From Candidatus Nanosyncoccaceae bacterium (GTDB lineage Bacteria > Patescibacteriota > Saccharimonadia > Saccharimonadales > Saccharimonadaceae): a stretch of DNA of 64,000 nt. Below are positions 1,075 to 33,576 of the stretch, one piece after another; the stretch's first letter is position 1; each line of letters starts with the position of its first letter. Position numbers and translations under genes: made by a program. The stretch lies in the NCBI GenBank assembly GCA_045536655.1, contig JAZSOA010000012.1:124385-188384 (forward strand), written 5' to 3'. The notes under the pieces were generated by a model. That model was given only the letters and a program-made list of their open reading frames with translations, did no database searches and was not told the DNA's origin.

Positions 1075-1127
1075 TAATACGCAAGCAATCTCTTCAGCAA
1101 CTACCATTCGTGCTAAAATTTATATAT

Positions 1128-1724
1128 ATGGGAGTTGGAGAGGTTATTCTTCGTATTTATGTCACGCATTTGGCTGCAATCGTCGCAGGCGTCGTAAATT
1201 CTGTTTGGTGCAAGAGTAAGCTTCTTTCCAAGCTCAGCAAGCCTATCGATGGCGGCAAAAACTTTACTGACCACAAACGCATTTTCGGCGACCACAAAAC
1301 CTGGAAAGGTCTCCTTGGCTACGTTGCATTAAATATCTTTTTTACGGTAATTGTCGGCCTTATCTACAAACTTACAAATATCAGCCATCTCAGTTTCGCC
1401 TACGAAAACCACGAAAACACCATCCTCTTCAATATCCTATTTGGCTTTTTGACTGGCCTCGCTTGGGCACTCTTCGAACTACCAAATAGCTTCATTAAAC
1501 GCCGCCTTAGTATTAAACCTGGCAAAAATCCCGAGGGCTGGAAAAGATTTTTCTTCATCATCCTCGATCAGGCCGATTCAATTTTTGGCATCTGTCTTGT
1601 ATTGTGCTTGTTTTACCCAATGTCCGTCGGCCTATATTTCTTCTACGTTTTTATTGGTTCCGCAACACATATCGTCTTTAATATGCTGTTGTATTTTGTT
1701 GGTTTAAGAAAGAATATGTTCTAA
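1128..1724 (+). CDS. CDP-archaeol synthase-like (CarS/DUF46-type) integral membrane cytidylyltransferase
   Basis: Multi-TM protein with GDHKTWKG and ELPNSFIKRRLSIKPGK...LDQADS motifs typical of the CarS family. ATG at 1128 follows TGcTAAAAT (1111-1119) by 8 nt. The track ORF begins at GTG 1110. Confidence 0.6.
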   Translation: MGVGEVILRIYVTHLAAIVAGVVNSVWCKSKLLSKLSKPIDGGKNFTDHKRIFGDHKTWKGLLGYVALNIFFTVIVGLIYKLTNISHLSFAYENHENTILFNILFGFLTGLAWALFELPNSFIKRRLSIKPGKNPEGWKRFFFIILDQADSIFGICLVLCLFYPMSVGLYFFYVFIGSATHIVFNMLLYFVGLRKNMF

Positions 1725-1732
1725 GGAGATTC

Positions 1733-4210
1733 ATGATTTATAAATTCAGTGATGCAGAAATATCAGACAAAAATGGTAATAAGGCCAACTCACTCATCGA
1801 AATGCAACGTGCTGGTTTTAATGTACCGGACGGCCTGGTTTTAAATAGTGATTGTTTTGATGAATTCTTACAATCTAACTCGCTCACAGATACAATTAAC
1901 AAAGAGCTAGCGAAGGGCGACGGCCTATCCAAAAAGACTCTCTCAGCATTCAAAAATGCAAAGCTTCCAAAAGGAGTCAAAACACAGCTGGACAAACTAA
2001 TCGATTCCAAAAAACTTTATGCCGTACGCAGTAGCTGCACGAAAGAAGACTTAGGCGATTCATCTTTCGCGGGACAATACCAAAGCTTCCTCTTTACCGA
2101 AGCAAAAGATATCGAGCGTCGCATTGTAGATTGCTACAAGTCCACCTACAACCAAAACATTGTAGCTTATTGCAAGCAAAACCACATCAAGCTCAGTTCT
2201 CTCAAAATGTCAGTTGTCGTACAGGAAATGATCAATTCAGATTATAGCGGCATTTGTTTTACGGTTAACCCAACAACCGGCAACGATAAAGAAATGCTTA
2301 TCGAGGTCGCAGAAGGCATTGGCGAAGAAATTGTTTCGGGTCACAATGCGCCAGAGCAATATTTCTATAGCTGGTACAATCACTACGCGAAATTCGACGA
2401 AAACAATCAGATTCTAGACAAAGCCAAGCTCAAAGAACTCGGCAAAACCTTTGCTAAAATCCAGCTCCATTTCGGCTTCCCGTGCGACATCGAATTCGCC
2501 CTGAAAGACGAGGAACTATACATTCTACAAGCCCGTAAAATTACCAAGATTTTTTATGGCGATTACGACGACGTATGGACCACGGCAGATTTCAAAGACG
2601 GCGGCGTTTCGGCAACCGTTTGTACGCCATTTATGTGGAGCTTGTACGAATACGTCTGGGATTTCATCATCCAAAAATTCCTTGTAGACTCCAAAATTCT
2701 CCCAAAAAATTACTGCGAACAGCACACCATGGGTGACATGTTCTTTGGGCGCTGCTATTGGAATTTAAGCGTAGTTAAGAAAGCCATGAGTAATGTCATT
2801 GGCTACCGCGAACGCGAATTCGATAACGAATATGGCATCAAGGGCGATTACGAAGGCAATGGCGCCACCACCAAGCTCACGCCAAAGAACGCCATCGTGC
2901 TAGCCAAAATGGCCCTCGCGCAAAAGAAAATCCTCAAAGAGCGCGAAGATAACGCCGAATCGTATATCGCAGATTTAATGTCAAAATATAACGGCTACGC
3001 CAAGAATTTCGACACAAACAAAGCAAAAATCGCTAAAATCTGGCGCAAGCTTGTCGAAAAAGACTATTTCCAGAGCGAGACCACCTATTTCTGGCAGATT
3101 TTCATCAATACCATTCATCAGTCACTCTACAAAGATAGCCTGCTCAAATTCATGAGCGAAGACGAATATCTCACAGTCCTCGGCGGCATCAAAGATATTT
3201 CACACATGCGCCCATTCTATGCCATGTGGGAAACCAGCCGCCAAATTCGCCAAGACAAAGATGAACTCAAATTCTGGCAAGAAAAAACTCCGGAAGCAAT
3301 CCTCAAAAACCTTGATAAAAACTACAAATCTCTCCAGTCTCTCAAACAAATCATCGCGGACTATGGCTATCATTCAGACAAAGAGCTTGATGTTACCTAT
3401 GAATGCTACTACGAAAACCCTCTGCCATATATCAAGAATATTCAATCGATGATCGAGCTCGAAGATAGCTTTGGTCCAGAAGCCGATCAGCTCCGTAACG
3501 AAAACGAATACCACAAAATCCTCGAAAAGCTCGAAGGGCAACTTAGCGCCAAGAAATACCATAAAGTACACACTAAGATTCAGAAAATGCGCAAGATGCT
3601 TTGGTGGCGCGAAGAGTTCCGTGATGTTTCGACCAGATTCTATTACATTATCCATCTCTACTCCAAATACTACGGTGAAGAATTGGCCAAAGAGAAAATC
3701 CTCAAGACTCCAGAAGATATTTGGATGCTCAAAATTCGCGATATCTGGAATTACCAAGACAAGAAAATCGACGCGAAAGAGCTCCGCAAAATCGTCGAGC
3801 GCAATCGTAAATATTACAACTCGTATCGCAACTACATGAGCGATAACGAAATTGTACCGAAAAACCATAGCCAATCCGCCGTTAGTGATTCGAATATTCA
3901 TGGCCTCGGCGCCTGCAGCGGCAAAATTACCGCTACTGCACGCGTTATCAAAGATTTCTCCGAAATCGACCGGCTCAACAAAGGCGAAATTCTGGTCACG
4001 AAATTCACAGATACCGGTTGGACGCCAAAGTTCGCCATTATCTCTGGTATCGTTACGGAATATGGCGGCATCCTTTGCCACGCAGCGATTGTTTCGCGCG
4101 AGTATGGCATCCCAGCAATCGTTAACTGTCACGACGCAATGAGTAAAATTCAAGACGGACAAACCATCACAATCGATGGCGGAACCGGGGAAGTAATAAT
4201 TGAGGAGTAA
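1733..4210 (+). CDS. PEP-utilising (PpsA / rifampicin phosphotransferase-like) enzyme: ATP-grasp PPDK_N domain plus C-terminal phosphohistidine swivel domain
   Basis: AVRSSCTKEDLGDSSFAGQYQSF, DIEFAL..LYILQARKIT, and C-terminal ILVTKFTDTGWTP..GIVTEYGGILCHAAIVSREYGIPAIV. Confidence 0.8.
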   Translation: MIYKFSDAEISDKNGNKANSLIEMQRAGFNVPDGLVLNSDCFDEFLQSNSLTDTINKELAKGDGLSKKTLSAFKNAKLPKGVKTQLDKLIDSKKLYAVRSSCTKEDLGDSSFAGQYQSFLFTEAKDIERRIVDCYKSTYNQNIVAYCKQNHIKLSSLKMSVVVQEMINSDYSGICFTVNPTTGNDKEMLIEVAEGIGEEIVSGHNAPEQYFYSWYNHYAKFDENNQILDKAKLKELGKTFAKIQLHFGFPCDIEFALKDEELYILQARKITKIFYGDYDDVWTTADFKDGGVSATVCTPFMWSLYEYVWDFIIQKFLVDSKILPKNYCEQHTMGDMFFGRCYWNLSVVKKAMSNVIGYREREFDNEYGIKGDYEGNGATTKLTPKNAIVLAKMALAQKKILKEREDNAESYIADLMSKYNGYAKNFDTNKAKIAKIWRKLVEKDYFQSETTYFWQIFINTIHQSLYKDSLLKFMSEDEYLTVLGGIKDISHMRPFYAMWETSRQIRQDKDELKFWQEKTPEAILKNLDKNYKSLQSLKQIIADYGYHSDKELDVTYECYYENPLPYIKNIQSMIELEDSFGPEADQLRNENEYHKILEKLEGQLSAKKYHKVHTKIQKMRKMLWWREEFRDVSTRFYYIIHLYSKYYGEELAKEKILKTPEDIWMLKIRDIWNYQDKKIDAKELRKIVERNRKYYNSYRNYMSDNEIVPKNHSQSAVSDSNIHGLGACSGKITATARVIKDFSEIDRLNKGEILVTKFTDTGWTPKFAIISGIVTEYGGILCHAAIVSREYGIPAIVNCHDAMSKIQDGQTITIDGGTGEVIIEE

Positions 4211-4211
4211 T

Positions 4212-4814
4212 ATGTTTATTGCAAAATGGAATAAAAGCGTGATTCTAACCTATATCGGCGCATTAATCGCCTGTTTCGGCATCTATCTAGCTTTGGCCGG
4301 AGCGCCAAACTGCGCCTGTATTTGTCTCGTACTGGCCGGCGTTTGCGATATGTTTGATGGCGCAATTGCGCGCAGTATTAAGCGCAACGAAGAAGAAAAA
4401 CAATTCGGCATCGAACTCGATTCGCTCGCAGATATAGTAAACTTCATCGCATTACCAATCGTAATTATCCTCACTCAAAACCAAAACTCGTTCGCCTTGC
4501 TTTCGAGCTTCGCGCTTGCCATTTGCGGTATCGCCAGACTAGCGCATTTTAATTCCGTCGCTAAACAAAGCAAAAAGAAAATCGACCATTACCAAGGTCT
4601 GCCAGTTACTTTTTCGGCACTCATTTTCCCAGTCATCTTTATCATCTCCGAGCTATTCTTCTCAGAAAACCTAGGAACCATCCTATCCGTCACGGCCTTT
4701 ATTGTCGCAGCATTCAATATCATCAACATCAAAATCCCTAAGCCACGCGGCCTCGCCTATGGTGTCTTTAGCGGCATCGCCATCGCAACAATAATCTTAT
4801 TGAGCATCCTATGA
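4212..4814 (+). CDS. CDP-alcohol phosphatidyltransferase (phosphatidylserine synthase-like)
   Basis: DG(x2)AR(x8-12)G(x3)D(x3)D signature: DMFDGAIARS...FGIELDSLADIV. Protein is multi-TM. The GAGGAG SD precedes ATG 4212. The stop overlaps the next start (ATGA). Confidence 0.8.
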   Translation: MFIAKWNKSVILTYIGALIACFGIYLALAGAPNCACICLVLAGVCDMFDGAIARSIKRNEEEKQFGIELDSLADIVNFIALPIVIILTQNQNSFALLSSFALAICGIARLAHFNSVAKQSKKKIDHYQGLPVTFSALIFPVIFIISELFFSENLGTILSVTAFIVAAFNIINIKIPKPRGLAYGVFSGIAIATIILLSIL

Positions 4815-5662
4815 CCAAAGTTTACAATCGACAAACACAAACCATTTGTGAACTTCCACAATATGGAGAGAAGCTCCTCAAATTCCTCTACAAAACAGCC
4901 GTGGGCCGGTTTTTGCTAAAAATTATCGCAGGCCATTGCTGCTCCGAAATTAATGCTATCTATAATCGCTCAGCATTTAGTAAAAAGAAAATCCGCCCGT
5001 TTATCGAGAAAAACAAAATCGATGTAAGCAGGTATAGCATCGAAGATTTTAAATCTTTCGCAGATTTCTTTTCGAGAAAAGACAATACAAAAACCTTTTC
5101 CAAAAACAAGAACGAGCTTATTTCGCCTGCCGATTCAAAACTGCTTGCTTACAAAATTTCCAAAGATCTACAAGTACAAATCAAAAACACAACTTACAGC
5201 CTTAGTGACTTAATTGGCGGTGGCATTCCCGAAGAATTTGAAGGCGGCAACTGTCTGGTCTTCCGTCTCGCCATGGACGATTATCATCGCTACTGCTTCG
5301 TCGATGACGGCAAACTCCTAAGCGCCAAGCATATCAAAGGAAAACTCCACACGGTCAGCTCCATTTCCGAACAATACAAAGTCTTCATCCAGAATGATCG
5401 CATTGTAAACTTTTACGAGCTCAATCATTTCGGTAGTATGATACAAATCGAAATCGGCGCCTTGTTAATCGGCAGAATCAAGAACCACAACATTACAGAT
5501 TTCAAGAAAGGCGAAGAGAAGGGCTACTTCGAGCTTGGCGGTTCTACCATCATTCTTCTGACTAAGAAAAACATCAAAATTGACGAGGATATCCTTGCGC
5601 AAAGCAAAGAGAGTACCGAAACAAAAGTAAGCTACGGCGAAAAGATAGGAGTAATATGCTAA
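4811..5662 (+). CDS. psd: Phosphatidylserine decarboxylase proenzyme
   Basis: Psd-like length, with the FELGGSTIIL self-cleavage (G-S-T) motif near the C-terminus. ATGA overlap with the upstream gene. Confidence 0.8.
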   Translation: MTKVYNRQTQTICELPQYGEKLLKFLYKTAVGRFLLKIIAGHCCSEINAIYNRSAFSKKKIRPFIEKNKIDVSRYSIEDFKSFADFFSRKDNTKTFSKNKNELISPADSKLLAYKISKDLQVQIKNTTYSLSDLIGGGIPEEFEGGNCLVFRLAMDDYHRYCFVDDGKLLSAKHIKGKLHTVSSISEQYKVFIQNDRIVNFYELNHFGSMIQIEIGALLIGRIKNHNITDFKKGEEKGYFELGGSTIILLTKKNIKIDEDILAQSKESTETKVSYGEKIGVIC

Positions 5663-6567
5663 AGCGATTGTACATATATTTCAAAGAACGCTATCCAATC
5701 TTCTCCAGGTTTTTGGTGGGCGTAATTATCTTTACGGAAATTTATTTCATTATTCTACTCAATCACGGCGTTACCTGGGATAATATTTGGCCAAATCTTG
5801 GCATTCAAGAATTTGTAGGTATGTTTACCGTCTTCGCCTTTTTGATGTGGTTACGCGTTGCGGACGATCTAAAAGATTACGAAACCGACAAAAAACTCTT
5901 CAAAGACCGCCCACTACCAAGTGGCCGCACGAAAATCAAAGATGTCATGGTTGCCTGTACAATTGTTCAGGCCATAGCTATCGCGCTCAACATTATCTTC
6001 ATGAATAATATCGTCTTCTTTATTATTCTTTACATCTACGGATACCTCATGAGCAAATGGTTCTTCCAGCGCTCAAAGATTCAGCCAAGCCTACCGCTTG
6101 CCCTCATTACACATAATCCAGTTCAGGCTATTGTAAATCTTTACATCGTTTCGTTTACGGTCATCAAATACAATCTTCCAGCTATCACGCTTATCAATAT
6201 CTTGGCACTCTTTACACTTTATTTCCCAGCGCTGATTTGGGAGATTTCGCGCAAAATCAAAGCGCCAAAAGAAGAGAATGCCTATACAACTTACTCCAAA
6301 CTATTCGGCTACAAGAAAGCTACAAAATTTGTTCTCATCATGACGCTCGTGGATATCGTAACGAATTTCATTCTTGTCTTTAATCTCAACAAGATCTCCA
6401 TCCTCGCGCTTGCCTTGCTAGCTGCCTGGATGACCTGGAAGTTTGTCCAATTTATAAAGAATCCTAATAAATTCAAACTCGTCAATAAAGTCGAGCGATA
6501 CATGTACCTGCAAGAAAGCACCATGCTGCTCACGATCGTAATCTTTATCATCGTAGGTAAAATCTAA
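5656..6567 (+). CDS. UbiA-family prenyltransferase
   Basis: Polytopic membrane protein with the first Asp-rich motif ADDLKDYETDKKLFKDRPLPSG (NDxxDxxxD...RPLPSG type). Confidence 0.75.
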   Translation: MLKRLYIYFKERYPIFSRFLVGVIIFTEIYFIILLNHGVTWDNIWPNLGIQEFVGMFTVFAFLMWLRVADDLKDYETDKKLFKDRPLPSGRTKIKDVMVACTIVQAIAIALNIIFMNNIVFFIILYIYGYLMSKWFFQRSKIQPSLPLALITHNPVQAIVNLYIVSFTVIKYNLPAITLINILALFTLYFPALIWEISRKIKAPKEENAYTTYSKLFGYKKATKFVLIMTLVDIVTNFILVFNLNKISILALALLAAWMTWKFVQFIKNPNKFKLVNKVERYMYLQESTMLLTIVIFIIVGKI

Positions 6568-8774
6568 TGCTTGGCGGCAAAGCTAAGAATCTACAAATTC
6601 TCAAAGCGGCCGGTTTTAATGTCCCGGATTTTCAACTCGTGCATTTTGAAGATATTCAAAACGAAAGCTACGAGATTAACCTTCAGGCCCAGAAGTATGC
6701 CGTACGCTCCGCTGCAAATGTCGAAGACGGCACAGAGAGTAGTTTTGCTGGACAGTTTACAACTTTCCTCAATGTTAGCAAAAAAGATTTAAAGAATAAA
6801 ATCCAAGCCTGCGCCAATGCGACAACTACTAGCAAAAAATACGCTGAAAGCAAAAATATTAATACCAAAAATCTAAAAGTCGACGTCATTGTACAAGAAA
6901 TGGTTGACACAGATTTTGCCGGCGTAATTTTTACAGCCAATCCGCAAGGCTTACTCAACGAATCTATTATCGTAGTTGCGCCAGGCCTTGGCGAAAATGT
7001 TGTCGCCGAAAAAGGCAAAGCCACAAGCTATTATTACAATACCACCGATAACCTTTACTATGCCGATGGCGACAAAGACTACCTCGACGAAACCACCATC
7101 CAGAAGCTCATTACACTATCGCAACAAATCGAAGAAGTCCTGACCAAAAATCTCGACATCGAATTCGCTATCAAAAACGGCGAGGTTTATATCCTACAAG
7201 CCCGCCCAATTACAACGCTCAAAACCAATCATCCGCTCGTCCTAGACAATAGCAATATTGTCGAGAGTTATCCGGGAATATCATTACCGCTCACGATTTC
7301 TTTCGCCAAAATGATCTACAGCGGTGTTTTTGAATCGGTTTGCCGCCGCATTGTACGAGATGAAAAAGAACTACAAAAGCATCAGAGCGTCTTTAAACAA
7401 ATGGTCGGCTCGAGCAACGGCCGCCTATACTACAAAATCAGCAACTGGTACGAAATTATCAATTTCTTGCCATTTTCGCAAAAAATCTTGCCAATGTGGG
7501 AGGAAAGCCTGGGCCTTAAAAATAGCATCAAGCATCAGCACGAAGCCAATTTTAGGCTCCATGCCAGAGTTGCCAAGAACTTCTTGAAAGAGCTCAAAAA
7601 CTCCCAAAAGAACATGGCTTGGCTCAACAAGAAATTTATCACAGTCGAAAAAGCCTACCGCGCAAACTATTCCGAAGACCTCAATCTTCAGCAAAGCCTC
7701 GGCCTGTTTTACCAGCTCGCGGACAGCCTTTTCCCGCACTGGGATTTAACTCTCATTAACGACATGTACTGTTTTATCAATGTCGGACTCTTGAAAAAGA
7801 AGCAGGGCGAGCGCGCTAACGAAACCATTTCAGCGATCTCGAACCTCGAAAGCATGAAACCGGTCGAAACCATGATCTTGCTCGCCGCAGACAAAAATGA
7901 ACTCAGTAAAGACGAATATCAGCTACGTTTCAATAAATATATCGAGGATTATGGTGACCGCAACGTCGAGGAGCTAAAACTCGAAAGCCAAACCTTCCGC
8001 ACCAATCCAGAACTACTCGAGCAGAGAATCGAAGCATATCGTAAAGATCCAGAAAACCTCTATCGCCTCGCCGACGAAATTCGTCATAAAACCAGTACGT
8101 CACAAAAAGATCTCCTGGCGAAACGTTGCGCTTCCGGTATTCGCAACCGCGAAATCTCAAGATTAAACCGCAGTCGCATCTTTGGTATGGTACGCGAAAT
8201 CATGCTCCATATTGGCAAAATTCTTACAAAACAAAAAGCCATCAAAACCCAGGGCGACATCTTCTATCTCACGATTGAAGAAATTGAAAGCTACAACAAA
8301 AAAGCCTACGATCTACAATCCATCATCAAAAACCGCAAACAAGAATATCAAATCTTCGCGCAGCTACCAAATTATTCCAAACTCATCTTTGCTGAGCAAG
8401 AATTCGATAAACTCCCGCAGAAACTCAACACTCATCCACAAAAGCTCGACAGTACGAATGTTCTAAATGGTACACCTTGTTCCAATGGTACCGTCAGCGG
8501 GGAAGTCTTAATCATCAAATCGCCGACCGAGCAATACGACACTACAGGCAAAATCCTCGTCACGCGCTCAACTGATCCAGGCTGGGTATTCATGCTATCT
8601 ACCGCCAAAGGCATCATCTCGGAACGCGGCTCGCTCTTATCCCATACTGCCATCATCTCACGCGAACTAAAAATCCCGTCCGTCGTCGGCGTAGAAAACG
8701 CCACAAAACTACTTAAAAACGGAGACAAAATCACCCTAGACGGCAAAACTGGCAAAATTACAATTGAGAAATAA
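6567..8774 (+). CDS. Second PEP-utilising (PpsA/RPH-like) enzyme, paralog of 1733-4210
   Basis: AVRSAANVEDGTESSFAGQFTTFLNV, DIEFAIKNGEVYILQARPIT, ILVTRSTDPGWVF..GIISERGSLLSHTAIISRELKIPSVVG. The start overlaps the upstream stop (TAATG). Confidence 0.8.
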   Translation: MLGGKAKNLQILKAAGFNVPDFQLVHFEDIQNESYEINLQAQKYAVRSAANVEDGTESSFAGQFTTFLNVSKKDLKNKIQACANATTTSKKYAESKNINTKNLKVDVIVQEMVDTDFAGVIFTANPQGLLNESIIVVAPGLGENVVAEKGKATSYYYNTTDNLYYADGDKDYLDETTIQKLITLSQQIEEVLTKNLDIEFAIKNGEVYILQARPITTLKTNHPLVLDNSNIVESYPGISLPLTISFAKMIYSGVFESVCRRIVRDEKELQKHQSVFKQMVGSSNGRLYYKISNWYEIINFLPFSQKILPMWEESLGLKNSIKHQHEANFRLHARVAKNFLKELKNSQKNMAWLNKKFITVEKAYRANYSEDLNLQQSLGLFYQLADSLFPHWDLTLINDMYCFINVGLLKKKQGERANETISAISNLESMKPVETMILLAADKNELSKDEYQLRFNKYIEDYGDRNVEELKLESQTFRTNPELLEQRIEAYRKDPENLYRLADEIRHKTSTSQKDLLAKRCASGIRNREISRLNRSRIFGMVREIMLHIGKILTKQKAIKTQGDIFYLTIEEIESYNKKAYDLQSIIKNRKQEYQIFAQLPNYSKLIFAEQEFDKLPQKLNTHPQKLDSTNVLNGTPCSNGTVSGEVLIIKSPTEQYDTTGKILVTRSTDPGWVFMLSTAKGIISERGSLLSHTAIISRELKIPSVVGVENATKLLKNGDKITLDGKTGKITIEK

Positions 8775-8776
8775 CA

Positions 8777-9841
8777 ATGAAATGTATCGAATTTACAAAC
8801 GAAAAACAACGTATTAAAGATTTTCTAAAACTACCAAAGCTTCTTTACAAAAAAGAAGAGAACACCGAGAATCCCAAAGAAATCGAAAGTATCCTGCTTG
8901 GCAAGCATCAACTTTGTAAGTATTTTAAACTTTACAAATTCCTAGTCTATAAAGAAGATAAGCCGGTCGCACGCTTTGCAATCACGCTCTATCCAAAAGA
9001 CAAAACTGCCTACTTCGGTTTCTTTGAATGCGTCGACGATAAAAAAGTCGCCAAATACGTTTTTGACAATGCCGAACAATTCGCCAAAGAAAACGATTGT
9101 AATAAAATCGTCGGCCCAGTCGACGCCTCATTCTGGATAAAATACCGTCTCAAGATTAATCAATTCGACTCCAGACCATATACCGGCGAGCCGTATAACA
9201 AAGAATACTATTTCAATCTCTTCAAAGACAACGGCTACGAAGTTTGTGACCATTACACTTCAAATCATTATGTCGGCGCAGAGTACGAATATATTAACAA
9301 GGAATACGAAGGCAAATACAAAGAATTTACCAACAAGGGCTACGAAATTCGCAGCATCGACATGAAGGAATTCGATAACTCCATCAAAGACATGTATCGC
9401 CTTATCACGGATCTTTACAGCGATTTCCCAATCTACAAAAATCTATCCCAAAAAGATTTCATCGCAACCTTTAGCAGCTTTAAATCCATCATTAACCCAA
9501 GCATGGTAAAGTTTGGCTACAAAGACAACAAAATGGTCGGCTTCTTCATTAGTATTCCAAATTACCACAACACGGTTTATCATCTGAACCCAATTAATCT
9601 AGCCAAAATCCTTAAATCCCTCAAAGACCCAGATGAATACGTCATGCTTTATATGGGCGTAGATCAAAAACATCATGGGCTCGGCCGAGCGCTGGTTTAT
9701 AGCATTATCCAAGAACTCAACCAAAGCAAAAAGCCAAGCATCGGCGCACTCGCTCACGATGGCAAAGTCACCCAGTATTATGCTAAAGAAAAAGTCGATA
9801 ATGTCTACGAATATGTATTATTGGAAAAGGAGATCAAATAA
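8777..9841 (+). CDS. GNAT-fold acyltransferase-like protein
   Basis: C-terminal YMGVDQKHHGLGRALVYSII resembles GNAT motif A (Q/RxxGxG/A). The rest is unassigned. Confidence 0.45.
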   Translation: MKCIEFTNEKQRIKDFLKLPKLLYKKEENTENPKEIESILLGKHQLCKYFKLYKFLVYKEDKPVARFAITLYPKDKTAYFGFFECVDDKKVAKYVFDNAEQFAKENDCNKIVGPVDASFWIKYRLKINQFDSRPYTGEPYNKEYYFNLFKDNGYEVCDHYTSNHYVGAEYEYINKEYEGKYKEFTNKGYEIRSIDMKEFDNSIKDMYRLITDLYSDFPIYKNLSQKDFIATFSSFKSIINPSMVKFGYKDNKMVGFFISIPNYHNTVYHLNPINLAKILKSLKDPDEYVMLYMGVDQKHHGLGRALVYSIIQELNQSKKPSIGALAHDGKVTQYYAKEKVDNVYEYVLLEKEIK

Positions 9842-11277
9842 TGTTAGTTTATTCCGAAATCATCAAGAATGCCTATAACAAATGGCGTGACAAAGGTTTC
9901 GTTTTCGAAAAAAGGGATGGCAAATTTGAGCCGACCACTTTCGGTGAATTAATCGAAAAAGGTGACGTGCTTGCTCACAAATTAATCGACGAGGGCTTCG
10001 CTGGCAAGAATATCATGATCTTTTCGCGCAACTGCCCAGATTATTTCATTGCCGACCTCGCCATTACGGCCTACGTTGGCGCCTGCGCCAATATAAACTG
10101 CCAACTTCCACTCGAATCTGTCGAACTAATTATCAAGAAGGCTGAAATTTCTGCCGTATTCTACGAAGAAATCTTCGAGCCAATCTTTTCAGAGATTGCT
10201 AAGAAATATCCTGAGATTAAACTCTACCCACTTCATAAAACTATCGCCGAACTTGGCGCACCAGAGGGCGAATTGTTTGATTTTCCAGTCAAAGACCCAG
10301 AAGTCTGCTCCAAAATCATCTTCACGACTGGTACTACATCCGATCCAAAAGGCGTCATGCTCTCGCTCAAAAATGCCTTCGCTGGCTGGGATTCACTCCA
10401 GCGCCGCACGCCTTTCACAGAAGACGAAGTTGCTTACTGCTTCTTGCCGATGCATCATACCTATGGCAATATCTACAACTTCATGTATTCACTCATCGAC
10501 GGCACGCAGCTATATCTCTGTAGCGACACGAATAAAATCGCCGAGGAATTACTAGAAGTCAAACCTACCATCTTCTGTGCCGTGCCAATCATTTACCGTA
10601 GGCTCTACGAAGGCTACGGCGAAAAGCTCGCTTACGCCTTTGGTGGTAGGGCAAAGTATCTCTTCTGCGGTGGCGCACTATTAGATCACCAAATGCGCCG
10701 TTTCTACAAAAAGCATGGCCTCATGATTCTCGAAGCCTACGCTCTCTCTGAAACCGCTTCATCCTTCAGTATCGAATATCCAAACAACGACGATTTTGAA
10801 AGCACCGGCACCGTCTTTGAAGACCTCGATGTTAAAGTAATTAACCAAGACGAGCGTGGCGTTGGCGATATCGTCGCAAAGGGCGATGCAGTCTTCATTG
10901 GCTATCTCAATGACCCAGAAAAAACTAAGGAAGCCTTCACGGAAGACGGCTACTTCATTACTGGCGATTACGGTCGTCTCGAAGACAGCGGTAGAATCTT
11001 TGTGATGGGTCGCAAGAAAGACGTACTGATCGGCGAAAACGGCGAAAATGTCTACCTCAACGAAATCCAGGCCGAGCTCATGAAGAACTGCGAATCCATT
11101 GCCAAGCTACAAGGCAAAGTTGGCAAAGACGGCCAGCTCTACTATACGGTCTACATCAAAGACAATTCTGAAGACGAAGTAAGGGCTGCAATCGAAAAAT
11201 ATAACGCCAATGCCGTCAAAGCTAACCGCCTCGCTAATTACGAGCTACAGTCGGAAGCCAAGATTACTTACAAATAA
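9841..11277 (+). CDS. AMP-dependent synthetase/ligase (acyl-CoA or acyl-AMP forming)
   Basis: IIFTTGTTSDPKGVMLS adenylation motif, YFITGDYGRL, GRKKDVLI. TAATG overlap with the upstream gene. Confidence 0.85.
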   Translation: MLVYSEIIKNAYNKWRDKGFVFEKRDGKFEPTTFGELIEKGDVLAHKLIDEGFAGKNIMIFSRNCPDYFIADLAITAYVGACANINCQLPLESVELIIKKAEISAVFYEEIFEPIFSEIAKKYPEIKLYPLHKTIAELGAPEGELFDFPVKDPEVCSKIIFTTGTTSDPKGVMLSLKNAFAGWDSLQRRTPFTEDEVAYCFLPMHHTYGNIYNFMYSLIDGTQLYLCSDTNKIAEELLEVKPTIFCAVPIIYRRLYEGYGEKLAYAFGGRAKYLFCGGALLDHQMRRFYKKHGLMILEAYALSETASSFSIEYPNNDDFESTGTVFEDLDVKVINQDERGVGDIVAKGDAVFIGYLNDPEKTKEAFTEDGYFITGDYGRLEDSGRIFVMGRKKDVLIGENGENVYLNEIQAELMKNCESIAKLQGKVGKDGQLYYTVYIKDNSEDEVRAAIEKYNANAVKANRLANYELQSEAKITYK

Positions 11278-11283
11278 ACAATC

Positions 11284-11310
11284 GAGACCAGCTCGTAATC
11301 GGGCTGGTCT
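11284..11310 (+). terminator. Hairpin after the ligase gene
   Basis: agaccagc-N11-gctggtct with a weak T tract. Confidence 0.45.
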
Positions 11311-11316
11311 TAATAA

Positions 11317-11345
11317 TTGACGCCCATATATTTCTGTGGCATAAT
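11317..11345 (+). promoter_or_regulatory. Sigma-70-like promoter of the flotillin gene
   Basis: TTGACG-17 nt-CATAAT. Confidence 0.55.
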
Positions 11346-11431: not shown

Positions 11432-13171
11432 ATGCCCGAACTTTCGACCTTAATCCCCATCATCATCGGCGTCGTAGTCGCGATCGTCGTAATCGTGGCG
11501 CTTTTTGCCATGATCAAAACCGCCAATGGTAACGAGGCTCTCGTAGTCTCTGGCGTTGGCGCGACAGACAAGAACGGCAACCCCACAATCAAACGCGCAG
11601 GTGGCAGAGTCGTCATTCCTTTCATTCAGAAAGCAAAGTATTTCGACCTCTGCGTCCGCACCGCAAAAGTCACCGGAGATATCACTAAGACCATGACTGG
11701 CGTCCCGATTCGTATCGATTGGGCTGTCGCATATAACCCAGACATCTCCAGTCCAGAATCGCTTCAGCGTGCAGTCTGCAATTTCTTAGATAAGAACGAT
11801 GACGATCTACAAAGAGTTATTCTCGACGTCGTATCTGGTGGCGTACGCGCCGTCATTGCAAAGATGACACCCGAAGAAGTCATGAACGGAAAAGACAAAC
11901 TCGACGACCAGGTTAAGGCATCCATTGCTGCGCAGATGAAGGATCTCGGCTTCAATGCGATTCTCTCAATTCACGAAGTTGACGACGCTCCTGACGGCAC
12001 ATACTACCAGGACCTCGCCGCTAAGGATAGAGAAACCGTTCGCAGAGAAGCCGCAAATATCACAGCAGAAAACGATCAGTCCGTACGCGAAAAGCGTGCA
12101 CAGACCGACCTTGCCGCACAGCAGGCCGAACTTGATGCTCAGGTTGCTATTGCCGAACGCAAGCGTGATACCGACGTCAAGAAAGCTCAGTTCCAGGCCG
12201 AAACCGCAAGAGAGCAAGCCAAATCCGCAATGGCTGGCGAACTCGAACAACAGGCCATCAATCAGGAACTCGAGCAGAAGAAGGGTGCGGTTGCAGTAAT
12301 GCAGGCCGAACAGCAAAACCTCGCCGCACTCAAGCAGCAGGAAGTAGCCGTTACTCAGGCCGAAACCGCCAAGAAAACGACCATCATCGACGCACAGGCC
12401 GAGGCTGCCCGCAAAAAGGAAGCCGCAACCGGTGAAGCTGAAGCTCTCAAGGTTTCATCTGCCGGTCAGGCTGAGGCTAAAAAGCTGACCGCTGCCGGCG
12501 AAGCCGAAGCTCAAGCAATTCGCAAAACCAAGGAAGCTGCCGCTTCTGCTGAGGCTCGCAAGACCGAAGCCGAAGGAGCCGCATCTGCCCGCAAGACTGA
12601 GGCTGACGCCGAAGCCACCGCCATCAAGATGAAGGCAAGTGCTGACGCTGAGGCGATTAAGGCCACTGGTGAAGCTGAGGCTGCCGCTATCTCTGCGAAG
12701 GGTAAGGCAGAAGCTGAAGCCATCGAGGCTAAAGGTAAGGCCGAGGCCGAGGCCGCTCGCGCTCTCTCTGATGCTCAGGCGGCCAACGACAAGATCAACT
12801 TCGAACTCCAGAAGATCGAAATTGAGCAGAACACTCGTGTTCAGGTGGCCACCAACATCGCAACCGTTATGGCTGAAATTGGTAAGAACGCTAAGTTCTA
12901 CGATTTTGGCAGCGGTAGCAAGACCGAAGGAGGCGGAGACTTACTTACCAGCGTACTCGGTCGTATTCCGCAGATTTTCGCCCAGGCCGACGCACAAAAT
13001 CAGGCCCTCAACGGCGAAGAACTGCAGGACACCGTCAAGAAACTCGTCGCTTCTATCGCCGAGCCCATCAAAAAAGGAGCAACACCTCCCGCCGGTAGCC
13101 CAATCAGCGACACCGCGGACAGCGCTCCCGAAATTGACGGTCCTTATTCCATGGAAGACGGCGAAAGCTAA
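11432..13171 (+). CDS. Flotillin-like SPFH/Band-7 protein with a long Ala/Glu-rich coiled-coil
   Basis: N-terminal TM, SPFH-like core, and AEAEA/AQAEA repeats typical of the FloT/YqiK family. AGGGAGG SD. Confidence 0.8.
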   Translation: MPELSTLIPIIIGVVVAIVVIVALFAMIKTANGNEALVVSGVGATDKNGNPTIKRAGGRVVIPFIQKAKYFDLCVRTAKVTGDITKTMTGVPIRIDWAVAYNPDISSPESLQRAVCNFLDKNDDDLQRVILDVVSGGVRAVIAKMTPEEVMNGKDKLDDQVKASIAAQMKDLGFNAILSIHEVDDAPDGTYYQDLAAKDRETVRREAANITAENDQSVREKRAQTDLAAQQAELDAQVAIAERKRDTDVKKAQFQAETAREQAKSAMAGELEQQAINQELEQKKGAVAVMQAEQQNLAALKQQEVAVTQAETAKKTTIIDAQAEAARKKEAATGEAEALKVSSAGQAEAKKLTAAGEAEAQAIRKTKEAAASAEARKTEAEGAASARKTEADAEATAIKMKASADAEAIKATGEAEAAAISAKGKAEAEAIEAKGKAEAEAARALSDAQAANDKINFELQKIEIEQNTRVQVATNIATVMAEIGKNAKFYDFGSGSKTEGGGDLLTSVLGRIPQIFAQADAQNQALNGEELQDTVKKLVASIAEPIKKGATPPAGSPISDTADSAPEIDGPYSMEDGES

Positions 13172-32802: not shown

Positions 32803-33576
32803 ATGAAAGATACGATGTTCAATCTCAAGGGTGACGTCGCCGTCGTTACGGGCGCCTCATCCGGCCTCGGCAAACAAATGGCCGAAGCTTTTGCAAAACA
32901 GGGTGCCAATCTAGCAATTCTCGCTCGCCGCTTCGAACGCCTCGAAGCTCTCAAGGCTGAGCTTGAAGAAAAATACAAAGTCAAAGTTTTACCAGTCGCT
33001 TGCGATATTACCAAGAGTGAAAGCATTGACGCTGCCGCAGAGGCCGTCAAGAAAGAATACGGCAAGGTAGACATCTTGCTTAACTGCGCCGGTGCTAGCA
33101 AGGACAAGGGTGTCCTCGATATGGCCGACGACGAATGGGATTTTACCATCGCTACTGACCTTACTTCCGTTTTCAAGATGACCCGCGCTTTCGGCAATAT
33201 CATGGCCGAGAATAACTATGGCCGCATTATCAATATCGCCAGCATGTACGGCCTCGTTGGTAACTCCGAAATTCCAACCATCGCCTACCACTCCAGCAAA
33301 GGTGGCGTAGTTAACTTTACGCGCGCCGTCGCCGCTGAGCTTGCTACCAAGGGTATTACTTGCAACGCAATCTGCCCAGGCTACTTCGAAACTGAGCTAA
33401 CCAAAGCCGTCCTCGATACCGAGCAATTCCAGTCCTTCGCTAAGGCCCATGTCCCAATGCAGCGCTATGGTAAGCCAGGCGAACTCAATGCCGCCGCAAT
33501 CTTCTTCGCTAGCCACGAAGCTAGCTATGTCAATGGCGCAATCTTGCCAGTGGATGGCGGATATACGGCTGTTTAG
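32803..33576 (+). CDS. Short-chain dehydrogenase/reductase
   Basis: TGASSGLG cofactor motif and YHSSK catalytic motif. Confidence 0.9.
   Translation: MKDTMFNLKGDVAVVTGASSGLGKQMAEAFAKQGANLAILARRFERLEALKAELEEKYKVKVLPVACDITKSESIDAAAEAVKKEYGKVDILLNCAGASKDKGVLDMADDEWDFTIATDLTSVFKMTRAFGNIMAENNYGRIINIASMYGLVGNSEIPTIAYHSSKGGVVNFTRAVAAELATKGITCNAICPGYFETELTKAVLDTEQFQSFAKAHVPMQRYGKPGELNAAAIFFASHEASYVNGAILPVDGGYTAV

Follow-up and report, generated by a model that had tools for sequence, protein, structure and literature searches.

Archaea assemble polar membrane lipids with a DGGGP synthase of the UbiA family, CarS, archaetidylserine synthase and a decarboxylase, in a pathway that includes GGGP synthase and G1P dehydrogenase and takes its lipid phosphate from glycerol phosphate. 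All four of these families lie in one operon in the window analysed here, a 64,000-nucleotide stretch of a rumen Saccharibacteria genome, where the UbiA protein is nearest to DGGGP synthase, the CarS-like protein retains the CarS motifs and the PssA-like protein matches archaetidylserine synthase best. However, the hosts of the operon are bacteria, its four enzymes all score below the equivalog cut-offs, and a kinase (K1 or DgkA) that phosphorylates an alcohol appears to be the source of its lipid phosphate. The operon also adds two Rph-like kinases (K1 and K2), a tandem GNAT and a ligase; GGGP synthase, G1P dehydrogenase and polyprenyl synthase are absent from the cluster and its conserved flanks. 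A previous sequence-only reading had called the genes archaeal-style, which fits only in part, as the CarS-like protein reaches 76.5 bits against a cut-off of 148 for the archaeal equivalog (NF003114), PlsC fusions are known for its subfamily, and a G3P dehydrogenase gene lies in the window.

Other parts of the operon resemble further described systems. Rifampin phosphotransferase (Rph) and the prodigiosin ligases PigC and RedH are built like K1 and K2, with ATP-grasp at the N-terminus, a phosphohistidine swivel domain at the C-terminus, a divergent substrate domain between them and no PEP/pyruvate TIM barrel. They act on hydrophobic substrates. K1 and K2 differ in scoring well short of the Rph (281 against 999) and PigC (283 against 1300) cut-offs and in having family-specific, very highly conserved central domains; their context implies lipid substrates, an activity not known for the family. 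The DgkA to CdsA route, which starts with a diacylglycerol or undecaprenol kinase, likewise converts a lipid alcohol to a lipid phosphate and then a CDP-lipid, whereas the window kinase is an 825-aa soluble Rph-type protein and the cytidylyltransferase is CarS-like, not CdsA. As in the bacterial PssA/Psd route to PE, the CDP-alcohol transferase, complete in its motif, is encoded next to and translationally coupled with a Psd proenzyme that has the GST cleavage site, but here the pair is embedded with UbiA and CarS-like genes. Finally, clusters in Cyanobacteria, Geobacter, Anaerolineae and Brevibacillus share the four core genes and their order, yet carry DUF3419 as the head-group module, often have an HMG-CoA reductase or radical-SAM gene upstream, and encode proteins only 20-30% identical to those of the window.

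A full-text literature search found no description of the cluster. We propose that the operon most likely makes an undescribed membrane lipid via an archaeal-type prenyltransferase, lipid kinases that resemble antibiotic kinases and a serine/ethanolamine head-group pathway. To the reading as a whole, in which a horizontally shared, self-contained operon of three modules makes a specialised polar lipid, we give somewhat better than an even chance. The gene families, their intact motifs, the conserved and modular operon and the exchange of K1 for DgkA are established by the data, whereas the step order, the substrates of K2, UbiA and GNAT and the chemical nature of the lipid are inferred.

Organization and conservation of the operon

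The operon spans 1128-11277 on the + strand in the order CarS-like, K1, CDP-alcohol phosphatidyltransferase, Psd, UbiA, K2, tandem GNAT and ANL ligase, each an intact open reading frame (Table 1). The sequence-only reading had described a ten-gene coupled operon with junctions of 0-8 nt or overlaps; every junction was verified and the operon is real, but it comprises eight genes, and neither recR upstream (469-1074) nor flotillin downstream (11432-13171) is a conserved neighbour. The family assignments made for the eight genes were all borne out by Pfam search, or by AlphaFold model and fold in the case of GNAT. A hairpin following the ligase may mark the operon end, although a terminator scan missed it because of its 10-nt loop and weak T-run; the promoter-like site at 11317-11345, between hairpin and flotillin, is flotillin's own.

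Table 1. Features of the operon, with positions in the window and gene junctions read from the sequence
Feature	Position	Strand	Supporting evidence	Junction with next gene
CarS-like CTP:lipid-phosphate cytidylyltransferase	1128..1724	+	PF01864 65.5 bits, 8e-18; alternative GTG start 1110	TAA 1722-1724, 8 nt with GGAG, ATG 1733
K1, Rph/PEP-synthase-like swivel-histidine kinase, proposed lipid-alcohol kinase	1733..4210	+	PPDK_N 8e-57, PEP-utilizers 2e-25	TAA 4208-4210, ATG 4212 (or TTG 4200)
CDP-alcohol phosphatidyltransferase, PssA-like	4212..4814	+	PF01066 (CDP-OH_P_transf) 1e-15; alternative TTG start 4200	ATGA 4811-4814
Phosphatidylserine-decarboxylase-type proenzyme (Psd)	4811..5662	+	PF02666 (PS_Dcarbxylase) 5e-44; NF001941 244 bits	7-nt overlap 5656-5662
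UbiA-superfamily prenyltransferase, distinct subfamily nearest DGGGP synthase	5656..6567	+	PF01040 40.7 bits, 2e-10; NF010118 405 bits, full length	TAATG 6565-6569
K2, second Rph/PEP-synthase-like swivel-histidine kinase	6567..8774	+	PPDK_N 2e-35, PEP-utilizers 9e-25; NF004882 742 bits, full length	2-nt gap 8775-8776
Tandem (double) GNAT acyltransferase	8777..9841	+	Acetyltransf_1 only 1e-3 by sequence; AF2 model	TAATG 9839-9843
ANL-family adenylating ligase, probably acyl-CoA synthetase	9841..11277	+	PF00501 (AMP-binding) 1e-47	
Hairpin, possible operon end	11285..11310	+	Perfect 8-bp stem, AGACCAGC...GCTGGTCT, read from sequence	

We assessed conservation in the best 80 species-level loci, 45 of which hold the full eight-gene order; the others mostly retain seven or fewer cluster genes because the contig stops short, the CDP-OH gene is lacking or the CDP-OH-Psd pair has moved. 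Such tight packing is no accident: related loci repeat the order with intergenic gaps whose medians run from -7 to +13 nt. The flanking genes are unrelated, no family among them being common to more than 12 of the loci.

Three modules of differing constancy

The variation among loci points to three modules: a core of UbiA, K2, GNAT and ligase, an activation pair of CarS and K1, and a head-group pair of PssA and Psd. The core order is the same in nearly all loci, and UbiA and K2 exceed all other cluster genes in constancy and conservation; in Brevibacillus, Oscillatoria (Cyanobacteria), Geobacter and Anaerolineae the core recurs with DUF3419 taking the place of CarS/K1/PssA/Psd. The head-group module is movable or dispensable within the cluster family: the CDP-OH-Psd pair follows the ligase in two loci (L059, L073), and about 13 Lachnospiraceae loci lack the CDP-OH gene within the cluster; one of these, L020, carries it at another place in the locus.

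The two kinases had previously been treated alike, a view that the module structure contradicts, as K2 goes with the UbiA core and K1 with CarS. The kinase of the DUF3419 clusters scores 287-292 bits against K2 and 126-161 against K1 in three of four loci, and K2 is by this comparison the counterpart of the UbiA-adjacent kinase there. K2 has intact ATP-grasp and SHTAIISRE motifs, and its nearest solved structures are the rifampin phosphotransferases 5fbs and 5hv1. In K1 the CHAAIVSRE histidine motif is conserved, with 256 of 825 positions at least 95% conserved; a Pfam search found no PEP/pyruvate TIM-barrel domain in either kinase. The only loci with a CarS-like gene but without K1 are L043 and L078, in both of which the CarS start is overlapped by a DAGK_prokar gene (PF01219, 1e-23 to 1e-25). 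We propose that K1 acts as a lipid-alcohol kinase because this DgkA-type gene replaces it before CarS and because a DAGK_prokar-CarS fusion (P0544) exists among relatives, alongside a UbiA-CarS fusion (P0543). These replacements and fusions also favour the earlier suggestion that a lipid alcohol passes through a kinase and CarS-like CDP activation to PS- and PE-type products.

The remaining enzymes retain the expected motifs. When aligned to the A. pernix CarS structure 5guf, the CarS-like protein keeps GDxKTxxG, SFxKRRL and LDQxD, and 52 of its 198 positions are at least 95% conserved across 74 loci; the earlier assignment of 1128-1724 to this family stands. The PssA-like protein keeps the DxxDGxxAR...G...D...D motif, with archaetidylserine synthase (89 bits) and PssA (73 bits) as its top NCBIfam matches, both below cut-offs, and the GGST self-cleavage motif of Psd is invariant across 77 loci. 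The GNAT model (pLDDT 87.4) is a clear tandem GNAT, its top Foldseek matches being the tandem GNATs 2wpw, 7q3a and 5kf1 and MshD 1ozp. A conserved GxDQxHxGLGxAL segment in its C-terminal half can be read as a CoA-binding loop, which would fit an acyl-CoA donor from the adjoining ligase. The ligase is probably an acyl-CoA synthetase: its best NCBIfam match is long-chain-fatty-acid--CoA ligase (182 bits, below cut-off), and segments read as ANL motifs A3, A5, A7 and A8 and the terminal Lys are conserved across 63 loci.

Proposed pathway and the nature of the lipid alcohol

In the pathway that we propose, the core would yield a diacylglycerol-like lipid alcohol bearing at least one isoprenoid chain. 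UbiA may join the isoprenoid chain by an ether bond, the ligase would convert free fatty acid to acyl-CoA, and the GNAT may acylate either the backbone or the final head group at its free amine. The phosphate that K2 introduces would not be the one found in the head group; the phosphorylated compound that it supplies would most likely be either the prenyl (di)phosphate donor or a phosphate-bearing acceptor for UbiA. K1 would then phosphorylate the lipid alcohol with the beta-phosphate of ATP via its swivelling histidine, the CarS-like enzyme would combine lipid phosphate with CTP to give a CDP-lipid, the PssA-like enzyme would exchange CMP for serine, and Psd would decarboxylate the resulting PS-type lipid to a PE-type lipid.

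The isoprenoid component of this scheme rests on UbiA. A profile search of PDB sequences matched only the DGGGP synthase 6m31, and the AF2 model (pLDDT 87.8) gave 6m31/7bpu as the best fold match (TM 0.66-0.70); archaeal DGGGP synthases are thus the only solved relatives by profile and fold, and the protein lies in neither a quinone nor a haem clade, in line with the sequence-only reading. The motifs LRVADDLKDYETD and WEISRKIKAPKEEN...TYSKLFG are present. ExxRK...(D/E)E stands in for the second Asp-rich motif, and the reaction may therefore depart from canonical prenyl transfer. In Brevibacillus, Geobacter and the loci L085 and L086, UbiA is immediately preceded by an HMG-CoA reductase gene, which fits isoprenoid input.

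K1 or DgkA could instead turn a polyprenol such as undecaprenol into polyprenyl phosphate, from which the CarS-like enzyme, PssA and Psd would form polyprenyl-phospho-serine and then -ethanolamine, a donor or anchor for modifying the cell envelope and not a bulk lipid. DgkA is an undecaprenol kinase in Gram-positive bacteria (B. subtilis, S. mutans), undecaprenyl phosphate is available to all hosts, Saccharibacteria among them, which would favour free transfer of the operon, and the UbiA superfamily has polyprenyl-phosphate enzymes, with the membrane PRTase 8j8j among our fold matches. We nevertheless regard this carrier as unlikely: DGGGP synthase, not PRTase, is clearly the best match by fold and profile, no clear role is left for UbiA, GNAT and ligase, and the substituting DUF3419, to which NCBIfam gave no name, is presumably BtaA-like and related to a diacylglycerol-modifying enzyme.

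It is also doubtful, and slightly more so, that the operon makes ordinary diacyl PE, with the CarS-like enzyme substituting for CdsA on phosphatidate, PssA and Psd giving PS and PE, ligase and GNAT feeding in exogenous fatty acids, and UbiA and K2 peripheral. Fusions to PlsC-type acyltransferases are known among close relatives of the CarS-like protein, whose bacterial subfamily may take the usual acyl phosphatidate, so that the CarS-like gene does not prove an isoprenoid substrate. A general PssA may serve where the CDP-OH gene has left the cluster, and the G3P dehydrogenase in the window would suit this route. Against it, UbiA, 68-81% identical across phyla, and K2 are the genes that vary least and persist where the CDP/PS/PE module is swapped for DUF3419, UbiA is itself found fused to CarS, and a standard diacylglycerol route needs no 825-aa Rph-type kinase.

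Host range and distant variants

The best 80 loci are mostly from Clostridia, many of them gut bacteria and some cultured (for example Butyrivibrio sp. XPD2006 and INlla14, Lachnospiraceae bacterium P6A3 and Ruminococcaceae bacterium YRB3002), with three from Saccharibacteria, two from Muribaculaceae MAGs and one each from Fibrobacter and Bacilli MAGs. The sequence-only reading had seen a salvage and remodelling pathway evolved for a CPR organism without de novo lipid synthesis, in keeping with the Saccharibacteria origin of the window and with fatty-acid activation and lipid kinases that could run on scavenged precursors. Such an origin is very unlikely given that the gene order is found mainly in Clostridia and is not specific to CPR, that the core reaches Cyanobacteria, Geobacter, Anaerolineae and Brevibacillus, and that the copies in Saccharibacteria fall in a single clade (98/100 bootstrap), sister to the others and not their source. 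The loci sampled already point to absence from most Saccharibacteria and presence in fatty-acid-prototrophic Clostridia.

A secondary-metabolite cluster, in which the Rph/PigC-like proteins would be ATP-dependent condensing or activating enzymes, UbiA would prenylate or cyclise a small molecule and the lipid-type genes would only tailor the product, is barely credible: K1 and K2 do match PigC (283 and 204 bits) and RedH, and distant variants carry a P450 or a radical-SAM gene, both common in biosynthetic gene clusters, but the cluster contains no carrier protein, PKS/NRPS, transporter or regulator, DgkA can displace K1 or be fused to CarS, and the integral-membrane phospholipid enzymes CarS-like, PssA-like and Psd are kept in order.

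An eight-gene operon is shared between Saccharibacteria and Clostridia

Re-reading of the sequence together with Pfam and NCBIfam searches revealed eight intact ORFs on the + strand, running from 1110/1128 to 11277 as a compact operon of ~10 kb that includes two Rph/PEP-synthase-like swivel-histidine kinases, K1 (after the CarS-like gene) and K2 (after UbiA). All eight genes belong to the families named by the sequence-only reading, and each of its gene junctions proved correct; its count of ten genes has to be lowered to eight, because neither the upstream recR nor the downstream flotillin is a conserved neighbor and a hairpin and promoter-like site split off flotillin. The flotillin/SPFH gene itself immediately follows the lipid operon, with a promoter-like site of its own, and encodes a long Ala/Glu/Lys-rich tail.

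Features of the operon, of the rest of the window and of homologous loci in other genomes (L numbers; positions are those of the window or of the locus named)
Feature	Position	Strand	Matches or remarks
CarS-like	1128-1724	+	PF01864, 8e-18
K1, 825 aa	1733-4210	+	PPDK_N + PEP-utilizers
CDP-alcohol phosphatidyltransferase	4212-4814	+	best models archaetidylserine synthase, PssA
Psd	4811-5662	+	PF02666, 5e-44
UbiA	5656-6567	+	PF01040; NF010118 'prenyltransferase' 405 bits, full length
K2, 735 aa	6567-8774	+	PPDK_N + PEP-utilizers; NF004882 742 bits
GNAT-like, 354 aa	8777-9841	+	GNAT sequence match marginal only
ANL ligase	9841-11277	+	PF00501, 1e-47
Hairpin, perfect 8-bp	11285-11310		between ligase gene and flotillin
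Promoter-like site	11317-11345		between ligase gene and flotillin
Flotillin/SPFH protein, 579 aa	11432-13171	+	FloT-like
Cutinase-family esterase, 384 aa	25507-26661	-	
FabG-like short-chain dehydrogenase	32803-33576	+	
1767-aa protein	39250-44553	+	Listeria-Bacteroides repeat domains
GpsA-like dehydrogenase, 260 aa	52253-53035	+	NAD-dependent glycerol-3-phosphate dehydrogenase, short
FabG-like counterpart	L001 2-289		5' end of locus
FabG-like counterpart	L002 2749-3345		
Extra double-GNAT gene, ~344 aa	L006 14214-15248		between tandem GNAT and ligase
DUF3419-type cluster	L081 8512-19900		
DUF3419-type cluster	L082 7285-17947		
DUF3419-type cluster	L083 7168-18766		
DUF3419-type cluster	L084 10001-18487		
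DUF3419-type cluster	L086 8704-18668		
DUF3419-type cluster	L087 7259-17762		

We scanned a UbiA alignment against one genome per species, which returned 355 loci, and kept the best 80. As judged by tblastn with the eight window proteins, the gene order CarS-K1-CDPOH-Psd-UbiA-K2-GNAT-ligase is kept among relatives and complete in 45 of these 80, bearing out the neighborhood as a conserved one. Most incomplete loci among the 80 hold at most seven cluster genes, through contig ends, loss of the CDP-OH gene or a shifted CDP-OH-Psd pair, and median intergenic distances range from -7 to +13 nt. Clustering of 569 flanking ORFs yielded no additional family beyond 12 loci; the families recovered include an ABC ATPase (the largest, 12 loci), LytTR and a cation efflux protein. 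Because flanking genes are unrelated between loci, the eight genes behave like a discrete, self-contained unit. In five loci (L006, L012, L015, L018 and L058) the tandem GNAT and the ligase are separated by an additional double-GNAT gene that looks RimJ/RimL-like by eye.

Only three of the best 80 loci are Saccharibacteria MAGs, from rumen or gut, and nearly all others are Clostridia; the cluster is thus no peculiarity of CPR bacteria, and this distribution speaks against a CPR-specific form of the lipid salvage pathway that the sequence-only reading proposed. Cultured carriers among the 80 include Butyrivibrio sp. INlla14, Butyrivibrio sp. XPD2006, Lachnospiraceae bacterium P6A3 and Ruminococcaceae bacterium YRB3002, and the carriers from further groups are one Fibrobacter MAG, one Bacilli MAG and two Muribaculaceae MAGs. 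In a neighbor-joining tree of UbiA, K2 and GNAT, the four Saccharibacteria copies group as a single clade (98/100 bootstrap) with the sampled non-Saccharibacteria copies as its sister (87/100), a rooting that leans on a long-branch outgroup. The eight genes have a GC3 (0.48-0.54) inside the range of other window genes. Recent transfer into the window genome was therefore rejected, since GC3 is native-like and the Saccharibacteria copies are an old separate clade; sharing between the phyla is clear but not recent here. Carriage by mobile elements was likewise rejected: when plasmid and phage collections were searched by tblastn with UbiA, nothing closer turned up than a 30%-identical homolog on a megaplasmid of Brevibacillus laterosporus.

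The cluster copies in L008 (Fibrobacter), L044 and L077 (Muribaculaceae) and L021 (Bacilli) nest within Clostridia clades of the tree, which reflects either more horizontal transfer or binning contamination. Separately, the FabG-like dehydrogenase of the window has 79-82% identical counterparts ~5 kb (L001) and ~2 kb (L002) upstream of the cluster, so the location of the cluster differs between related Saccharibacteria genomes.

The UbiA and CarS-like proteins are bacterial relatives of archaeal lipid enzymes

The UbiA protein passes PF01040 (40.7 bits, cut-off 34.2), and its AlphaFold model is all-helical (pLDDT 87.8). A profile search of PDB sequences matched only 6m31, the M. jannaschii DGGGP synthase, and Foldseek placed the DGGGP synthase structures 6m31 and 7bpu on top (TM 0.66-0.70), followed by AfUbiA, membrane PRTase and UBIAD1. 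By both approaches its nearest solved relative is DGGGP synthase and not a quinone or heme enzyme, in keeping with the sequence-only reading. It falls far below the archaeal-type prenyltransferase model NF009523 (27.8 bits against 269) and nearly attains the cut-off of its own family model NF010118 (443), and it constitutes a subfamily of its own. Its first Asp-rich motif, (N/D)DxxDxxxD, is intact, with ADDLKDYETD conserved; in place of the second (DxxxD) stands WExSRKIxxPx(D/E)E...TYSxLFG, in which only an acidic pair is left. We did not take the altered second motif to mean an inactive enzyme, because the acidic pair and its surroundings (ExxRK...(D/E)E) are conserved both in the eight-gene clusters like that of the window (gut-type) and in the distant DUF3419-type clusters described below. 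Neither GGGP synthase nor G1P dehydrogenase was found in the operon or in recurrent flanking families.

The CarS-like protein passes PF01864 clearly (65.5 bits, gathering cut-off 22) and scores 76.5 bits to NF003114, about half of the 148-bit archaeal equivalog cut-off. All 87 of the nearest 50%-cluster representatives match NF003114 weakly (best E-value 3e-24), which suggests a distinct bacterial subfamily. Alignment to A. pernix CarS (5guf) revealed common GDxKTxxG, SFxKRR and DQxD segments, and K57, S121, K124, R125 and D147 are invariant, and D150 nearly so, across the 87 representatives.

Conserved motifs are also present in the head-group enzymes. The CDP-alcohol transferase matches PF01066 at 58.9 bits and retains DxxDGxxAR...G...D...D (65 loci), with scores under the equivalog cut-offs of TIGR00473 (73 bits against 107) and NF038087 (89 against 240); serine as its substrate has indirect support, from the neighboring Psd. 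The latter matches PF02666 at 150.8 bits and carries an invariant GGST self-cleavage site (77 loci), and it falls short of the NF001941 equivalog (244 against 371).

K1 and K2 are swivel-histidine kinases without a TIM barrel

Both kinases contain an ATP-grasp domain and a swivel phosphohistidine domain with conserved catalytic-histidine motifs, CHAAIVSRE in K1 and SHTAIISRE in K2. As the sequence-only reading had noted, the PEP/pyruvate TIM barrel is missing (no PEP-utilizers_C match by Pfam in either), and scores to PEP synthase models lie far under the cut-offs. Its comparison to rifampicin phosphotransferases holds for the closest solved relatives, which are rifampin phosphotransferases, but not for the Rph equivalog NF041857, to which K1 scores 281 and K2 193 against a cut-off of 999. 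Constraint is particularly strong on K1, where 256 of 825 positions show at least 95% identity across 72 loci. K2, at 735 aa against a median of ~756, is missing a variable 40-aa insert, as in other loci; since all its motifs are intact, the suspicion of a pseudogene was rejected. The NCBIfam equivalogs NF004881, NF004882 and NF004883 ('phosphoenolpyruvate synthase') nearly reach their cut-off scores on these kinases without a TIM barrel, as NF010118 likewise does on UbiA, and such kinase genes are therefore probably misnamed PEP synthase in many annotations.

The GNAT-like protein is a tandem GNAT by its predicted structure (Foldseek probability 1.00 to 2wpw, 7q3a and 5kf1), with a Pfam score of 19.8 by sequence alone, under the 20.7 cut-off. 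It conserves GLGxAL, a segment we read as the acyl-CoA pyrophosphate-binding loop, which fits an acyl-CoA donor from the adjoining ligase. The ANL ligase (163 bits to PF00501) conserves segments read as A3, A5, A7 and A8 and the C-terminal lysine (63 loci), and every NCBIfam match to it is under its cut-off.

A conserved core is joined to alternative head-group modules

The 30%-identical megaplasmid UbiA led us to a wider family of clusters in which DUF3419 replaces the CarS-like gene, K1, PssA and Psd. These contain UbiA, an Rph-like kinase, DUF3419, sometimes an unknown protein of ~450 aa, a tandem GNAT and an AMP-ligase. Often the gene immediately before UbiA encodes HMG-CoA reductase; in cyanobacteria a radical SAM gene plus two unknown genes lie upstream instead, a layout seen in Oscillatoria and again in L087. 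We found such clusters in Brevibacillus, Oscillatoria, Geobacter, Anaerolineae and other loci, and the underlying UbiA family has 4022 members at E<1e-5; the DUF3419-type cluster is apparently widespread and without earlier description. NCBIfam returned no name for the DUF3419 protein, whose family we take to contain BtaA, an enzyme acting on diacylglycerol. In three of four loci the kinase of these clusters scores 287-292 bits to K2 versus 126-161 to K1. K2, and not K1, is thus its counterpart, and UbiA, K2, GNAT and ligase therefore make up a conserved core, to which the CarS-like, K1, PssA and Psd genes are joined as one of at least two alternative modules. Within the gut-type family this set divides further into an activation module (CarS-like and K1) and a head-group module (PssA-like and Psd): the CDP-OH-Psd pair is movable, following the ligase in L059 and L073, and the CDP-OH gene is absent from the cluster in ~13 Lachnospiraceae loci.

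The activation module bears on the function of K1. Among the best 80 of 355 loci, only L043 and L078 have a CarS-like gene without K1, and in both a 115-116-aa DgkA-type kinase (PF01219, 1e-23 to 1e-25) is encoded immediately upstream, overlapping the CarS-like gene. This non-orthologous replacement is the best support for the view that K1 acts as a kinase on a membrane lipid alcohol to supply the CarS-like enzyme. A sensitive search with the CarS-like protein (1224 representatives, E<1e-3) additionally revealed a DAGK_prokar-CarS fusion (P0544), which supports the kinase-to-CarS link, and a UbiA-CarS fusion with the same LRVADD motif (P0543), which supports the UbiA-to-CarS link. Several further fusions in this set join CarS to a PlsC-type acyltransferase (P0540, P0566, P0575 and P0595), a sign that the bacterial CarS-like subfamily may handle acylated lipids too.

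Proposed pathway and competing explanations

Every enzyme comes from a known superfamily, and the route from CDP-lipid through PS to PE is textbook logic; we classify the cluster as a form of CDP-activated aminophospholipid synthesis. From the module structure, we infer that the core would produce a diacylglycerol-like lipid alcohol with an ether-linked prenyl chain, which K1 would convert to a lipid phosphate and the CarS-like enzyme, with CTP, to a CDP-lipid. The PssA-like enzyme and then Psd would yield a serine lipid and an ethanolamine lipid. K2 could, for example, produce the prenyl (di)phosphate donor for UbiA; its phosphate is probably lost within the core, because the K1 step has to follow the core and an alcohol would be the substrate of the DUF3419 module, too. 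The ligase/GNAT pair may serve either backbone acylation or N-acylation of the head group, as both alternative head groups would carry a free primary amine (serine/ethanolamine here, homoserine if DUF3419 acts like BtaA). The organism can make a bacterial G3P backbone, given the GpsA-like gene in the window; since no G1P dehydrogenase was seen within the window, G3P is more likely than the archaeal G1P.

We propose, with low confidence, that an archaeal-like ether aminophospholipid with isoprenoid chains, or a hybrid with both acyl and prenyl chains, is synthesized naturally by many Clostridia of herbivore guts and by some Saccharibacteria of the rumen. We are similarly tentative in suggesting that the pathway runs via a DGGGP-synthase-like UbiA and a CarS-like enzyme, with Rph-type 'antibiotic kinases' as its lipid-alcohol kinases. 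It is possible, and no more probable than these proposals, that Cyanobacteria, Geobacter, Anaerolineae and Brevibacillus run a sister pathway, which adds another amino head group to the same lipid core.

A less likely account is ordinary diacyl PE synthesis, with the CarS-like enzyme in the place of CdsA; the PlsC-type fusions suggest CdsA-type action on acyl lipids in some bacteria. The constancy of UbiA and K2, taken together with the replacement of K1 by DgkA, is explained less well by this route than by prenyl-ether lipid synthesis. The same holds for a serine/ethanolamine carrier linked to polyprenyl phosphate and for a secondary-metabolite cluster. The CPR-specific salvage idea accounts for these observations less well too, besides its conflict with the predominance of Clostridia.

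A full-text literature search (CarS, UbiA, PEP synthase, GNAT, DUF3419, BtaA, Psd) returned no account of the cluster and no description of these genes together in one operon, of Rph-type kinases in a lipid context, or of a core shared across phyla whose head-group modules can be exchanged. CarS was undetected in the bacterial (Ca. Cloacimonetes) MAGs of Villanueva et al. (PMC7852524). If true, the ether-lipid proposal would represent a widespread bacterial crossing of the lipid divide not seen before, and many rumen and gut bacteria would contain a lipid class that lipidomics has yet to assign, made by enzymes that textbooks assign to Archaea. A lipid-alcohol kinase would be a new biochemical role for the Rph family, giving the Rph/PEP-synthase-like proteins that NCBIfam names 'phosphoenolpyruvate synthase' a physiological role. 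An epibiotic Saccharibacterium here has a complete, intact lipid-building operon in common with Clostridia, and the cultured carriers and the compact, self-contained operon make the model directly testable and suited to heterologous expression.

Elsewhere the window has typical Saccharibacteria content, including Mur ligases, Ddl, MurT/GatD and thymidine and thymidylate kinases, as well as ABC transporters and a large surface protein. Its housekeeping proteins share 90% clusters with proteins listed by NCBI under 'Candidatus Saccharibacteria bacterium'. The 1767-aa protein with repeat domains is probably a surface adhesin of the epibiont, and the cutinase-family esterase could release fatty acids from host or plant lipids.
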